The translations under genes and the position numbers were made by a program. The notes under the pieces were generated by a model, which was not told the DNA's origin, made no database searches, and was given only the letters and a program-made list of their open reading frames with translations. Source: a virus (taxonomy: Duplodnaviria; Heunggongvirae; Uroviricota; Caudoviricetes). From it: a stretch of DNA of 63,121 nt. The stretch lies in the IMG/VR virus record IMGVR_UViG_3300032307_000691. One strand, 5' to 3'. This document shows, piece after piece, positions 48,430 to 62,087 of this stretch (positions are counted from its first letter, which is position 1; each line of letters starts with the position of its first letter).

Positions 48430-48535
48430 GCATTGACCCCCCTTTTTAACCCCCCCAAAAACCCTTAAATTAAGGGGGGATACGGGAGGGGGGAGGGGTA
48501 CACCCCTATGGTGGGGGGTAGATGTAGGGGGGTTT
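48430..48535. other. C-tract / G-tract divergence element (candidate origin or genome terminus)
   Basis: C runs left and G runs right of CCCTTAA-A-TTAAGGG (48462-48476); gene orientation diverges here. Confidence 0.45.
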
Positions 48536-48721
48536 GCCAATCAAATTCAAAAATCCATCACAGGGGAGCATTTCCTGTGGAACTTGCCAAACAAATTATT
48601 TCCTGTCCCGTCTGTCCCCGAAAAAAACTTTCTTATTTGGCAAAAAAAAATATAAAAAATAGTTGGTTATATGTTTTTTTGTGTATCTTTGATATACCAA
48701 ACAATTAAAAACTATTCAAGT

Positions 48722-49237
48722 ATGAACAAAATGAAAATCGGTCGTGAGGAATTGATTACAATCCTCAACCAACAAGAAAAAGGAACTTTTGTAAACTTGG
48801 TTACTGAAACCAAAGTAAGAATGAACAAAAGGAACAACCCTTACTTTGACAAAATTGTAAAGAGGTCAAAGTGTAACTACCTTTTGGGTATGGATTACCA
48901 ACAACGAGTAAGGAACAACGAAGAAAAAGAAGGACTACAACCCGACTTCGTTACCGAAGAATGTAAGGTAGGGGAACACATCAGTAAGTGTGTATTGTTC
49001 AACGAAAAGTTAAACTCTCACTATGTAATGGTGGAAAGGTTTGGAGAAATTAAACCACAAGTGGAGTACACCTTTGAGGGTAACGAAATTGACAAAGGTT
49101 TGTTTGAGGACTTTATGGTAAAGTACACCGAAAGTAAGAAACAAGAACAAGAACGAAAAGTGAATGTTCTAACTTTCAAAGTGGAAAACATCAAGGAAAT
49201 GTCTTTGAACGGAAACCACTACGAAATTGGGGAGTAA
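48722..49237 (+). CDS. Hypothetical early protein
   Basis: Start moved to MNKMKIG downstream of the promoter. Confidence 0.75.
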   Translation: MNKMKIGREELITILNQQEKGTFVNLVTETKVRMNKRNNPYFDKIVKRSKCNYLLGMDYQQRVRNNEEKEGLQPDFVTEECKVGEHISKCVLFNEKLNSHYVMVERFGEIKPQVEYTFEGNEIDKGLFEDFMVKYTESKKQEQERKVNVLTFKVENIKEMSLNGNHYEIGE

Positions 49238-49541
49238 CTTCCCCACTTATGAGAAACCAACCCTCACCCGAAAAGGTGGGGGTTTTTTATTTATGGAATT
49301 TTTCGTCAGAACCTTCCATCGGGAAATTAGTTTGGCAATCACGGGAAGATGTGACTCAGATGACCTTCCATCCGGAAATTAGTTTGGCAACCATAGTATT
49401 TGTCATACATATATGGGTATAGATTGCCAATCAATTTTTGACCGGGTCTTCCTCCTTCAGAAAAAAAATAAAAAAAAGTTGAAAATAAATTTGTGTATTC
49501 AAGAATTAGTTTTATATTTGTATAAACAAAACCGAACAATT

Positions 49542-49739
49542 ATGAAGTATCTATTGAAATTCGTATTACAAACAATGGTAATGTTGTTTGTTGTTACACC
49601 CGTATTCATTGCGTATGTTATTTGGGAATGGAAACTCCCCGACACCGAGATTTACCGATTGTATCATCGGTCAACAAAAAGATTTGTGTGGGTTATGGGT
49701 GGAAAGTATCAACCCAAAATGAAACCGAGTAGATTTTAG
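49542..49739 (+). CDS. Small membrane protein
   Basis: MKYLLKF... TM. Confidence 0.6.
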   Translation: MKYLLKFVLQTMVMLFVVTPVFIAYVIWEWKLPDTEIYRLYHRSTKRFVWVMGGKYQPKMKPSRF

Positions 49740-50008
49740 TTGTGTAGTTTGATTGGTTAATTGGTGGAAACCCTCATCAGAAATGGTGGGGGTTTTTTCT
49801 TTGTGTGAAGATTATTTCCCGCAGCAGGTTCACCTGCTATTTGTTTGGCAATTATGGTATTACACACAACCCTTGCCAATCAATATTAAAGTATTTTTTC
49901 TTCCGGCCCCGTCAAAAAAATTTCTCAAGTTGGCAAAAATAGTTTCATTTTTATTTGGAATATAATTGTATTAGTTTTATATTTGATTAACCAATTAAAT
50001 TATTTATT

Positions 50009-50446
50009 ATGAAAACAAGAAACGAAGATTATCAAGAGTTCAAAGATTTCAGTGGAAAAATGATGAGTGATTTCGCTGAAGCGATTAATGATGGTGATGT
50101 TATCCCACAAGATTTACCAAAACGAATGTTGGTGATGTTGTTGGAAGATGAAGATGGTGAGTATTGTACCGCCGGTGGTGGTTTAACGGGTACACCACTT
50201 GACATCGTGATTATCCCCGACATTATGGGTAAAGTTCAAAGAGATGGAAACCGAATCGTTTGTGTAATGGAAATGGTTTTCAACGAAGAAAAGATGAAAG
50301 CGAATTTTGTTTTCGTTTGTGAATTGGGTGAAGAAGAAGAAAAGTACACCGAAACACACACTTTCAAAATTAATGAAGGTGAAATGTACATTGATGAAAA
50401 CGGAGAACTTGTTTATCCTTTATCCGTTATGGAATTAGTCGAGTAG
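50009..50446 (+). CDS. Acidic hypothetical protein
   Basis: 145-aa ORF behind a promoter. Confidence 0.75.
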   Translation: MKTRNEDYQEFKDFSGKMMSDFAEAINDGDVIPQDLPKRMLVMLLEDEDGEYCTAGGGLTGTPLDIVIIPDIMGKVQRDGNRIVCVMEMVFNEEKMKANFVFVCELGEEEEKYTETHTFKINEGEMYIDENGELVYPLSVMELVE

Positions 50447-50743
50447 GTTTGTTTTTGGTTAGGTGGAAGCCCCAATCAGTAATGGTTGGGGTTTTTTTAT
50501 GCGCTAATGTGTGCACTGGAGCTGCACAGTTGCAGCTCTTCATTTTGTTTGGCAAGAAGAATGTAGATAAAATAAGGGTTTCCCTTGCCAAACTATTTTG
50601 ACAGTGCGCAGCCCTTGAGCTGCTCGTAGCTGCGCTACACCAGTGCACTTATCTTAATAGCGCGTAAAAATGTACCGAAATTAGTATTGTGTATATCATA
50701 GTATGTGTTGTATATTTGGATAAACCAAAACGGAAACATTAAA

Positions 50744-60166: not shown

Positions 60167-60261
60167 GCTCGGATGGTAAATTTAGTTTGGCAAAAAAAGA
60201 TTAAAAATTATTTGGATTATCAAAGTATTCGTATTATATTTGTATTCTAAAACTAATCATT

Positions 60262-60546
60262 ATGGCATTTACTATTGAAAAATTGAAACCCTACAAGTAT
60301 GAGGGTAACAAACATTGGACGGTGACAGCCGACCTACGAGGACTTGAAACCTTTGACAACTGCGAGAGTAACTATGATGTCGTGGACAGATTAAAGGACA
60401 ACAAAGTTCTTGGGAAGACAACCAAAGAGGACAGCGAGTATTGTCAGTTCTTCGCTTACTTCAGTACAAAGAAATCTGCTGAGAACTTTATTAAGCGTCT
60501 CGGTCAGTATGTAGAAAAAAGAAAAACAATTATTAATTCACTCTAA
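60262..60546 (+). CDS. Hypothetical early protein
   Basis: 94-aa ORF. Confidence 0.7.
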   Translation: MAFTIEKLKPYKYEGNKHWTVTADLRGLETFDNCESNYDVVDRLKDNKVLGKTTKEDSEYCQFFAYFSTKKSAENFIKRLGQYVEKRKTIINSL

Positions 60547-60558
60547 ATTTTTGAAATC

Positions 60559-61107
60559 ATGGGATTGGACATGTATCTAAGCAAGAAGACCTACGTTAAG
60601 AACTGGGACTTCCAACAGAAATCGGAAAAGCACACCGTAACCGTTAAAAAAGGTGGCAAAACACGTACCGACATCAAACCTGAACGGGTGTCATACATCA
60701 CAGAGAGTGTGGCATATTGGCGTAAAGCAAACCACATCCACCAATGGTTCGTGGACAACGTACAGGATGGTGAAGACAACTGCCGTGAGTATTATGTAAG
60801 TAAAGAACAACTACAAGAGTTGGTTGACACTTGTAAGAAAGTAAAAGAGAGTTTGGAAAAATCTCCGAAACAGAAGGTTCAGGTAGAAGTAGGTTGGCAA
60901 AATGGTGAGAAGATGTATGCCGATGTTGAAGTATTTGAAGACACATCAGTTGCGGAAGAACTATTACCAACACAATCTGGTTTCTTCTTCGGTGGAACGG
61001 AGTATGATGAATGGTATGTTCAGGGTTTGGATGAAACCATTAACCAAATCGAACCACTACTTCAGGAAGAAAATGAAGGGGATTTTCATTACCAAGCATC
61101 TTGGTAA
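60559..61107 (+). CDS. Conserved phage protein (MGLDMY...YWRKANHIH...GFFFG family)
   Basis: Recognisable recurrent phage family, function unknown. Confidence 0.75.
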   Translation: MGLDMYLSKKTYVKNWDFQQKSEKHTVTVKKGGKTRTDIKPERVSYITESVAYWRKANHIHQWFVDNVQDGEDNCREYYVSKEQLQELVDTCKKVKESLEKSPKQKVQVEVGWQNGEKMYADVEVFEDTSVAEELLPTQSGFFFGGTEYDEWYVQGLDETINQIEPLLQEENEGDFHYQASW

Positions 61108-61183
61108 GAAAAAAACAGGGGATACCATTAGGAATAATGGTATCTCTTTTATATCTTTGTATTACGAGTTAAAAAATTAGAAC

Positions 61184-61822
61184 ATGCCGAATTGGTGTAC
61201 AAATTGGATTGAGATTGAAGGAGATAAAAAAACTATCTCTAAACTAACTCGCATCATTAAGGATGCATCCAAGCCCGAAAACAAAACTGGTTTATTTGAA
61301 ACCCTCATTGGGATTAAACCTAATGTTGCTCGTGAGGATTATGACAATGGTCATTGGTACAACGCAAACACCGAATGGTTTGGAACGAAGTGGGATGTTG
61401 ATGTTTGTGAGTCAAACTTCAACTTATCTGATGAGAGCATCTCATTTAGTTGTGAAACTGCTTGGTCTCCACCTTGTGCTTTTCTCGCTACTTTCTGCGC
61501 AATGTATGGTGTGTCGGCGGTCATTACGTATGAAGAAGCTGGTTCTGACTTCGCTGGTAGAACTTCATTTGATGAAGGAGGGGACATTGTAGAGGAAGAA
61601 GATTACCGATATGAGGAGGGAATCTATGTTCTTCAGAACGATTACTTCTGGGAGAACCTCGATAACAACTTTGAGTATTATGCTGACAGCGAGATGACCA
61701 TAGAAGAAGTGGGTAACCACTACGGATTTACATCCGACGAAGACAAAGCGGAGATTATTAAAATGTATGAGGAATACCTCAAAGAAAATGAAATCACTTT
61801 TGAAACTAAAGAAAATGAATAA
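61184..61822 (+). CDS. YubB/DUF1281 ferredoxin-like domain protein
   Basis: MPNWC.N, GTKWDV, ETAWSPP, YEEAG. Confidence 0.8.
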   Translation: MPNWCTNWIEIEGDKKTISKLTRIIKDASKPENKTGLFETLIGIKPNVAREDYDNGHWYNANTEWFGTKWDVDVCESNFNLSDESISFSCETAWSPPCAFLATFCAMYGVSAVITYEEAGSDFAGRTSFDEGGDIVEEEDYRYEEGIYVLQNDYFWENLDNNFEYYADSEMTIEEVGNHYGFTSDEDKAEIIKMYEEYLKENEITFETKENE

Positions 61823-62066
61823 TCCAAAATACCAATCAGTAAGTATTCCCGAAGAAGTATTGACTTATGAGGAATGGAGAGAGCAGCTCGGAGTATCTAC
61901 TCTCTATCACGCAAAATCGATTATCAACAGAGTAACGTTGGATGAAATCGAAATGTATGGGAAAGATTTTATGACAACCCATATGGAGCAAACAAAGCGC
62001 AGGAATTTGCTTAGCAAGTTCATTCACAGATTCACAAAAACGGAGACAGCTGAACCCCGAAATTAG
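61815..62066 (+). CDS. Hypothetical protein
   Basis: MNNPKY... Confidence 0.55.
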   Translation: MNNPKYQSVSIPEEVLTYEEWREQLGVSTLYHAKSIINRVTLDEIEMYGKDFMTTHMEQTKRRNLLSKFIHRFTKTETAEPRN

Positions 62067-62087
62067 TTTGGCAAATAAAACAGTAAC

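Follow-up and report, generated by a model that had tools for sequence, protein, structure and literature searches.

A lineage-specific, helically phased array of operator-like boxes in a putative early gene block of an uncultured Bacteroidota phage

Introduction

The 63,121 nucleotides of the IMG/VR virus record IMGVR_UViG_3300032307_000691 that were analysed here (the window) carry, in their right-hand part, several dozen copies of the word TTGGCAA, most of them in the short gaps between small genes. The question that this locus raises is whether these copies are docking sites of one regulator and, if they are, which protein reads them. The word is the core of a 14-bp asymmetric box that is enriched in a single gene block and confined to it, that is conserved as islands in otherwise scrambled DNA, that stands at distances from the promoter quantised with a period of 10.4 bp, and that switches between lineages in a manner decoupled from core phylogeny. 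The box is operator-like, and at moderate confidence it is predicted to be the docking site of one sequence-specific factor, which would differ between lineages and would most likely be encoded by the phage. An interpretation made earlier from the letters of the window alone (the sequence-only reading) had proposed co-ordinate control of the region by such a factor, of phage, virion or host origin; it appears to be largely right, although unproven.

The window is part of an uncultured Bacteroidota phage, apparently lytic and of the jumbo type. Its DNA had no match among 50,697 deposited phage genomes, and the phage is undescribed; near-complete genomes related to it measure 270-336 kb. A search of the literature on TTGGCAA in phages, or on early promoters of jumbo or Bacteroidetes phages, returned nothing relevant.

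A 14-bp box confined to one block of small genes

From position 48,434 to the end of the window (63,121; 14.7 kb), gene calls place every gene on the + strand, mostly with products of fewer than 130 amino acids. Most of these genes have an intrinsic terminator and a near-consensus Bacteroidota promoter (TTTGG-N20-TAnnTTTG) of their own: strict promoter matches number 15 in the block against only 4 in the remaining 48 kb of the window, and terminator hairpins occur in most intergenic segments of the block. Searches of the block proteins against Pfam and PHROG were mostly empty, only DUF932, DUF4314, an L5 gp82-like protein, DUF1281_C and a weak GmrSD_N match being returned; small open reading frames that span a box and a promoter (e.g. 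53150-53278) were taken as spurious.

TTGGCAA was counted on both strands, with dinucleotide shuffles giving the expectation. The window contains 47 matches, compared with a shuffle mean of 9.6 and a shuffle maximum of 19; 37 of them fall between 48,434 and 63,121, and the 10 in the other 48.4 kb correspond to the background level (two of these, at 2682 and 4530, lie at or inside tRNA genes of a 14-gene cluster at 63-5231). Within the block, 32 of the 37 copies are intergenic, 22 forward and 10 reverse, in only 4.29 kb of intergenic DNA, where 19 of the 21 segments have a box and TTGGCAA ranks first among G/C-containing 7-mers, above the words of the terminators. The other five copies are inside genes (51118, 56938, 57452, 60894 and 62464). 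Alignment of the 32 sites extends the word to a 14-bp asymmetric box, A-TTWGtTTGGCAA, in which -7 A, -4 T and -2 G hardly vary, preceded by a G+C-rich stretch. The 32 intergenic copies of the sequence-only reading were thus reproduced exactly, and its 7-bp word is real, although the conserved box is twice as long and a further copy, at 62464, lies beyond the interval 48534-62074 assigned to it. Its statement that the boxes stand in front of early promoters holds for one third of them (11), the rest being arms of pairs or boxes at junctions that have no promoter.

Three arrangements can be recognised. In the first, a lone forward box points towards a promoter across an A-rich spacer, 14, 24, about 25 or 45 bp from the -33 element (start to start). 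In the second, a convergent pair, forward box and then reverse box, lies farther upstream and is followed by a G+C-rich stretch, about 30 bp of phased A-tracts and the -33 element; the spacers between TTGGCAA and TTGCCAA measure 10, 10, 19, 21, 29, 30, 33 and 115 bp in the window. In the third, lone forward boxes stand at gene junctions without a promoter (62068, and 56938 in a gene end). A pair is combined with a proximal box at two promoters (49845-49985 and 59581-59775), and divergent pairs are absent from the block. Every single box points along transcription, the 10 reversed copies of the 32 being the proximal arms of convergent pairs. Of the 22 forward boxes, no more than 11 are proximal to a promoter; the others are distal pair arms or promoter-less junction boxes such as 62068. 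Most boxes have an intrinsic terminator on their upstream side and the next promoter on their downstream side. The two arms of a pair differ consistently outside the core (TAGT as against TTGA), and a check for palindromic operators found all window boxes asymmetric, with pair spacers of at least 10 bp; TTTGGC-N4-GCCAAA occurs only in some relatives. None of the four host-type promoters that the window has outside the block carries a box, and box-less promoters of identical core sequence exist both inside the block and outside it.

The boxes and their surroundings, from left to right, are as follows.

48534..48692 (+): left border, with reverse boxes 48534 and 48584 and forward box 48637 about 25 bp before the variant (GTTG) -33 element of the promoter of gene 48722-49237
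48722-49237 (+): first + strand gene after the left border
49332..49520 (+): forward boxes 49332 and 49384 and reverse box 49424 (33-bp spacer with GTCATAC), phased A-tracts, promoter 49490-49520
49845..49985 (+): pair 49845/49873 (21-bp spacer with GTATTAC), then box 49930, 24 bp before the -33 element of promoter 49954-49985
50549..50718 (+): pair 50549/50585 (29-bp spacer of the AATAAAAT-AAGGGTTT family), G+C-rich stretch, variant promoter near 50688
51118..51124 (+): copy inside a gene, its extended flank also matching (AATTCATTTGGCAA)
51374..51469 (+): pair 51374/51391 (10-bp spacer), promoter 51438-51469
51730..51775 (+): proximal box 51730, 14 bp before the -33 element of promoter 51744-51775
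52258..52389 (+): pair 52258/52284 (19-bp spacer with GTATGACAC), variant promoter 52359-52389
52818..52863 (+): proximal box 52818, 14 bp before the -33 element
53206..53261 (+): proximal box 53206, 24 bp before the -33 element, with a G+C-rich GAGTCACGG element ahead
53658..53713 (+): proximal box 53658, 24 bp before the -33 element, with a GAGTCACGG element ahead
53978..54032 (+): proximal box 53978, 24 bp before the -33 element
54517..54639 (+): pair 54517/54534 (10-bp spacer CGTATGACAC) upstream of the promoter of the DUF932 gene, 54608-54639
55622..55860 (+): wide pair 55622/55744 (115-bp spacer), promoter 55829-55860
56350..56405 (+): proximal box 56350, 24 bp before the -33 element
56938..56944 (+): promoter-less junction box within gene 56644-56964, at its 3' end; the following start codon is 23 nt downstream
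57838..58016 (+): box 57838, 45 bp before the -33 element of the first of two tandem promoters (57883-57914 and 57985-58016) of the ParB-like gene
58067..58816 (+): ParB/KorB/Noc-like protein of 249 aa, with DGQHRLxAA (GxxRxxA-type)
58922..58928 (+): lone forward box followed by a spacer of the AATCAAGGGTTTG family, its reverse partner absent
59581..59775 (+): pair 59581/59618 (30-bp spacer with IHF-like AATCAA-N4-TTG), then box 59720, 24 bp before the -33 element of promoter 59744-59775
60187..60242 (+): proximal box 60187, 24 bp before the -33 element
62068..62074 (+): promoter-less junction box, 13 nt before start codon 62088

Distances between box and promoter change by helical turns

The sequence-only reading had noted steps of about one helical turn, and its distances for the window (14 bp for 51730 and 52818, 24 bp for seven boxes, 45 bp for 57838 and about 25 for 48637) were obtained again. 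The set was enlarged with eight loci retrieved from IMG/VR with the DUF932 protein (54662-55519) as query, a search that gave 23 related loci of 63-92% identity, so that 66 non-identical box-to-promoter contexts could be compared. The distance to the -33 element is 13 bp in 2 contexts, 14 bp in 8, 22 bp in 1, 23 bp in 23, 24 bp in 20, 34 bp in 9, 35 bp in 1 and 45 bp in 2, and no intermediate distance occurs among the 66, so that the proposed same-face spacing extends to the relatives. The best-fitting period is 10.4 bp (Rayleigh R = 0.94), and with the eight distinct distance values alone a random set equals this fit in about 1 of 10,000 trials (p ~1e-4). The contexts are related by descent, and the stronger argument for phasing is therefore that orthologous promoters change class: the promoter of one gene has its box at 24, 23, 13, 13, 13, 14 and 24 bp in different phages, that of another at 13 as against 34 bp, and three further promoters at 24 as against 34 bp, the distances in between never being seen. 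If transcription is assumed to start about 5 nt after TAnnTTTG, the proximal boxes would be centred near -50, -60, -71 and -81.

The convergent pairs follow a similar rule, in a blunter form. In 164 non-identical pairs from 20 loci the gaps between TTGGC and GCCAA peak at 3-5, 14-15, 20-25, 33-38, 43-47 and 53-59 bp, approximately in steps of one turn. The distance from the reverse box to the promoter is tight (61-68 bp) in two clades other than the TTGGC clade.

Each lineage has its own box in the same place

The motif is not a genome-wide one. The 16 matches to TNGNTTGGCAA in a 288-kb relative all fall within 19 kb and on one strand, and a 310-kb relative has 28 of its 32 matches within 18 kb. 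Six near-complete genomes, four with TTGGC boxes (class 1) and two of class 2, were scanned in 20-kb bins, the window-type genomes with the looser pattern TNGNTTGGC, which also gives rise to a thin background scatter; in all six, the lineage's own box is restricted to one region of 1-3 adjacent bins (~20-60 kb), and in a 324-kb genome the 44 copies of TTTACTGGA are all found within 40 kb.

Other lineages have other words at the equivalent places of the same architecture, among them GTGGGGCAA, ACTGGGGT, AGTCTGGA, TTACTGGA, TACCGGGA, TTTCGCA and TGTGGCA. By locus (L numbers), the boxes are AATTAGTGGGGCAA in L013, aTTACTGGGGta in the L014 clade, TTTAGTCTGGA in L107, TTTACTGGAT in L121, TTTACCGGGAT in L127, TTGTTTCGCA in L036, TGTGGCA in L134, CTGTGGC in L109 and TCTGGCA in L055. 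These words form a graded series with a T-rich 5' part and a TGG core in common. They do not follow the relatedness of the phages: on the DUF932 tree L013, L107 and L113 are nested among TTGGC phages, and over 143 core protein families the class-2 genomes resemble genome G001 on average as closely as do G021 and G022, both of class 1 (difference 0.5 ± 6 percentage points), indicating that box type is decoupled from core-genome relatedness. TTGGC-type boxes are found in phages spanning 30% to 37% G+C.

When the DNA upstream of the DUF932 gene is aligned between orthologues, the conserved islands are the two boxes, the GTATKACAC between them, the -33 and the -7 elements, and the remainder is scrambled. 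Within one genome, likewise, the 14-bp island is invariant and the flanks of its copies are unrelated, which argues for a reader acting in trans and not for homogenisation of copies by gene conversion. Together with the lineage words decoupled from relatedness, these islands point to a trans-acting reader whose specificity would differ between lineages.

Which protein reads the box?

Two proteins had been put forward as possible readers by the sequence-only reading. The first, a ribbon-helix-helix (RHH; CopG/Arc-like) protein encoded at 24210-24458 on the minus strand, was rejected: it is present in 15 of the 15 related genomes searched (62-76% identity), and its DNA-reading beta-strand is nearly invariant across phages with different boxes, QMLSFRV and KMLTFRV each being found with TTTGGCAA boxes and with others. 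This protein is probably a core regulator and is unlikely to be the reader.

The second, the ParB/KorB/Noc-like protein of the block (58067-58816), fared better and is now the leading candidate, although it is unproven and, as a refinement of the predicted phage-encoded factor, rather doubtful. It would act in the manner of KorB, as a global repressor of a regulon, possibly loading at the boxes and then spreading or sliding to the promoters. Its AlphaFold model (predicted local distance difference test, pLDDT, 89) finds ParB, Noc, KorB and the N-terminal domain of pNOB8 ParB in Foldseek; the alignments span 217-273 columns and take in the helical DNA-binding region as well as the N-terminal ParB domain, and 27 homologues all keep DGQHRLxAA unchanged. 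The Pfam match is a weak one to GmrSD_N, and PF02195 is on record for homologues. The gene lies in the box-rich block with a box of its own upstream, and its tandem host-type promoters, about 100 bp apart, and long A-rich leader (57883-58066) are kept in L001, L002, L003 and L009. Among 30 lineages gathered through DUF932, and hence blind to ParB, the gene is present in 23 of the 23 that have a ...GGC(A)-type box and absent from 7 of the 7 with other boxes, an association that requires at least 3-4 gains or losses on the DUF932 tree. A profile search that finds the gene in a control genome does not find it in the 97%-complete 324-kb genome, and in a screen of all open reading frames of the six genomes it is the only one of at least 100 aa that occurs in all four TTGGC genomes and in neither class-2 genome. 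Some relatives, moreover, have 16-bp palindromes of parS size, TTTGGC-N4-GCCAAA.

Presence of the gene therefore tracks box class, but no co-variation with the box was seen in the putative helix-turn-helix: phages that share a box differ widely in this segment, and L052 (TTTGGCAA) and L109 (CTGTGGC) have it nearly unchanged. The graded series of boxes runs over lineages with and without the gene, which suggests that a single homologous reader serves them all; in L013 the gene is missing from a 168-kb contig, and yet the box is of the ...GGCAA type; and remoter members of the family (at most 38% identity) occur in phages that have no boxes of this kind. The known ParB, KorB and Noc proteins are dimers on palindromic sites (PMC11790492), whereas here most sites are single and asymmetric.

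The remaining candidates were set aside. DUF932, the sole universal protein of the block, does not co-vary with the box, close relatives carrying very different boxes and distant ones the same box. No protein confined to the ParB-less lineages was found in the loci searched, genome-wide class-2-specific open reading frames gave no match to a DNA-binding Pfam family, and nine large proteins whose divergence between box classes exceeds the core average have no Pfam matches and were uninformative.

Other explanations and objections

It is unlikely that the reader is a host protein, that is, a Bacteroidota transcription factor or nucleoid protein present at injection, acting as a class I-type activator or as an architectural protein, with box differences mirroring those of the hosts. 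An activator of true early promoters must already be in the cell, the four box positions resemble the geometry of class I activators, and the large proteins that diverge between box classes could be host-range proteins; the IHF-like sites in pair spacers, with no HU/IHF gene in five phage genomes, also suggest that at least one host protein may participate. A host reader, however, accounts poorly for a box type that shifts between phages with near-identical promoter consensus and similar G+C and that is decoupled from core relatedness, for TTGGC-type boxes in phages of such different G+C content, for the existence of same-core promoters without a box and for a phage gene, the ParB-like one, that tracks box class. 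An explanation that dispenses with a dedicated reader is considerably less probable: the box would be part of a terminator-spacer-promoter cassette, similar to the PeSL (early promoter and stem-loop) cassettes, kept uniform by recombination and serving as a homology patch for shuffling. The gene content between boxes does vary among relatives, many contigs end within the block, and DNA contigs from other samples, as weak evidence, join different cassettes with break-points in intergenic modules. Conversion tracts, on the other hand, would homogenise stretches longer than the 14-bp island, recombination needs neither strict 10.4-bp phasing nor strict orientation, and the box type switches as a set.

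Action of the boxes in RNA, with hairpins formed by the pairs serving processing, stability or antitermination and the junction boxes serving translation control, is very improbable. Pairs can form stems of 7-14 bp, and a few promoter-less boxes lie 13-29 nt before start codons (62068, 56938); but most boxes fall between a terminator and the next promoter, outside the main transcripts, single boxes have no partner, compensatory changes are absent from the arms outside the core, and the spacing is quantised relative to a DNA element, the -33. It is hardly credible, finally, that the box is a -35-like promoter element for another sigma factor or for a phage RNA polymerase. TTGGCA resembles words of the -24/-35 type and the box precedes genes, yet its distance to the downstream elements varies by 10, 20 and 31 bp, which no sigma factor tolerates; the sigma-54 signature GG-N10-GC is absent, with no TTGC at the required distance and at least 15 bp from GG to GC in the pairs; reverse copies occur; and a complete host-type promoter follows every proximal box.

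The predicted lineage-specific, phage-encoded factor has its own difficulties, and several observations weigh against it. The 66 contexts are not independent, as they include paralogous copies and related loci, although about seven class switches are. The distance from the reverse box to the promoter is broad in the TTGGC clade (42-86 bp). Quantisation could partly stem from the gain or loss of whole A-tract units that serve promoter curvature: the spacers between box and -33 are themselves phased A-tracts, and the box ends in an A-run in register with them, so that contact between factor and polymerase is possibly not its only cause. The label 'early' is suggested by host-type promoters, individual terminators and small genes, and the available metatranscriptome contigs (X19 and X20) are short, come from the interior of gene bodies and cannot map starts, ends or absence of transcripts. 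Lastly, the box variants at the same positions in different lineages argue for the trans-acting factor of the sequence-only reading, but the box binder was not identified among the candidates examined.

Proposed mode of action

Binding by a protein, its contact with polymerase and the sign of the regulation are proposed here from sequence patterns. About 36 sites punctuate a block of about 18 kb made of small, terminator-bounded genes that are presumably read by the host RNA polymerase, and a lineage-specific, probably phage-encoded protein would bind them, either as a monomer or in the form of loosely coupled subunits. Roughly half of the promoters have one box that is directed at them from 1.3, 2.3, 3.3 or 4.3 turns upstream of the -33 element, so that the bound factor would always be on the same, polymerase-facing side, as class I activators and contact-dependent repressors are. 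The other promoters have two convergent boxes an integral number of turns apart, with GTATKAC or an IHF-like bend site between them, suggesting that the boxes are held together over a bent spacer as co-operative, bent or looped pairs farther upstream, the bending being possibly due to a host DNABII protein. Boxes at promoter-less junctions could act as road-blocks, and the net outcome would be co-ordinate control of the entire block. As promoters of the same core without a box exist, the factor is probably not required for the promoters to fire; it probably modulates the block promoters or shuts them off at a given time, instead of being an obligatory activator.

A more far-reaching scenario, which seems improbable when taken as a whole, is that a family of uncultured aquatic Bacteroidota jumbo phages co-opted a ParB/KorB-type protein as master regulator of the early block, which would use asymmetric half-sites, act from one helical face on host sigma-A polymerase at four positions and form bent pairs with a host IHF/HU-type protein plus GTATKAC; lineages that lost the gene would have re-tooled 20-45 operators for another reader.

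Other conserved words and the edges of the block

A second word, GTATKAC(AC), that is, GTATGAC or GTATTAC in either orientation, occurs in pair spacers and also after some terminators. It is present in 53 of the 164 pair spacers, where about 1 would be expected, and is frequently repeated two or three times at intervals of 20-21 bp; GTATKACA has 12 occurrences in the 14.7-kb block and 2 in the 48 kb outside it. The word is also found in pair spacers of L003, L005, L007, L012, L013 and L014, and it is identical in all lineages, including those with different boxes; since it stays constant while the boxes differ, it probably has a separate, conserved reader. The enterobacterial IHF consensus WATCAA-N4-TTR is present in 17 of the 53 spacers of 32-40 bp (0.17 expected, 20 loci) and in no spacer of any other length class among the 164. 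As a search for an HU/IHF gene (PF00216) in five related phage genomes was negative, any bending would fall to a DNABII protein of the host. In four segments the DNA between terminator and box has a G+C-rich element, made up of a ACTTGAGTCACGG core (with the 7-bp palindrome TGAGTCA) and flanking CCTGA/TCAGG arms, which is found also in L001, L009 and L012; GAGTCACGG occurs three times in the block and nowhere else in the window. Other segments have different G+C-rich stretches dense in short palindromes (GTGCAC, GAGCTGC, TGCGCA), which is unusual for a genome of 35% G+C. The positions in the window are as follows.

49402-49408, 49857-49863, 52274-52282, 54525-54533 and 54464-54472: GTATKAC(AC), either orientation
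59595-59612, 58945-58960 and 50565-50580: spacer elements AATAAAATCAA-N4-TTR
53165-53195, 53620-53650, 54470-54500 and 56312-56340: G+C-rich ACTTGAGTCACGG element

At the left border of the block (48434-48535), runs of C and G (e.g. GGGGGGTAGATGTAGGGGGG) stand directly ahead of the first reverse box, and a GGGGGTAGGTATAGGGGG-like element precedes the first box in L006, L012 and L014; this element could mark the boundary of the block or serve as an origin or end signal. Many IMG/VR contigs end in the box-rich block within a few kb of the DUF932 gene (L001, L003, L005, L007, L008, L011, L012, L015, L016 and L018-L021), probably because repeated cassettes break assemblies. The block is not a genome end, for it is internal in G022, a genome with direct terminal repeats. 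Contigs from other freshwater and from crustacean-associated metagenomes (runs X2 and X4) join cassettes that are far apart in the window, e.g. 50537 to 55631 and 53168 to 60196, with break-points at or beside boxes and promoters, which weakly suggests, from short flanks of 85% likeness, the gain or loss of cassettes by recombination between intergenic modules. Outside the block, the promoter at 5746, which precedes a non-coding region, has GCCAACCA about 40 bp upstream (5700-5745), a word that looks like the reverse box found in the L003 clade, although this one instance may be a coincidence.

Relation to known systems and significance

Class I regulators work on one helix face only, with allowed positions about 10.5 bp apart: CRP activates from sites at -61.5, -71.5, -82.5 and -92.5, and p4 of phage phi29 is comparable. 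The four natural classes of box positions found here resemble this series, although at Bacteroidota sigma-A promoters (-33/-7), for which we know of no described geometry of an upstream activator or repressor. T4-type phages reportedly have PeSL cassettes, said to have been described by Arbiol et al. in 2010, in which small early genes lie between an early promoter and a terminator stem-loop in a hyperplastic, shuffled region. The block shares with them a conserved early promoter and terminator around small variable genes, with gene content that varies among relatives, but PeSL cassettes are not known to have a separate, helically phased upstream word, or one that switches from lineage to lineage.

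The closest match in kind appears to be the operator/stoperator array of cluster A mycobacteriophages (L5 gp71, TipsytheTRex repressor), where more than 20 asymmetric, oriented 13-mers are bound by a monomeric repressor (PMC9283540, PMC6550527), one phage protein thereby reading the word and silencing many genes. In both systems a single asymmetric word of 13-14 bp recurs dozens of times, at promoters as well as in short gaps between genes, and is specific to the lineage. Stoperators are oriented with transcription; here the lone boxes are, and 10 of the 32 intergenic copies are reversed. Unlike stoperators, which are spread over the genome and also stand in transcribed gaps, the boxes are confined to one block of about 18 kb, half of them form convergent inverted pairs, and they stand upstream of the promoters at helically quantised distances, not over them; no homologue of the L5-type repressor was found, although no search aimed at one was made. 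In possible machinery, the closest match may be the KorB-OB regulon of the IncP plasmid RK2, in which a ParB-family CTPase clamp is a global repressor and its operator OB is a 13-bp palindrome bound by a dimer (PMC11790492). The block resembles it in that a ParB-family gene lies within operons bearing many operator copies at variable distances from the promoters, and in that gene presence tracks operator class among relatives; it differs in that single, asymmetric sites predominate, in the lack of a known KorA-like partner, and in that no co-variation with the variants of the box was seen in the putative recognition region.

Little is known of how transcription is controlled in Bacteroidota and in their phages, and the block offers a natural spacing experiment, with the same site at four positions one turn apart and orthologous promoters hopping between them. 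The set-wise switch of about 20-70 operators between close genomes makes it a clean system for the study of a regulator and its regulon changing specificity together. If it is true that the ParB-like protein reads the box, KorB-type global regulation would be extended to phages and to asymmetric sites.

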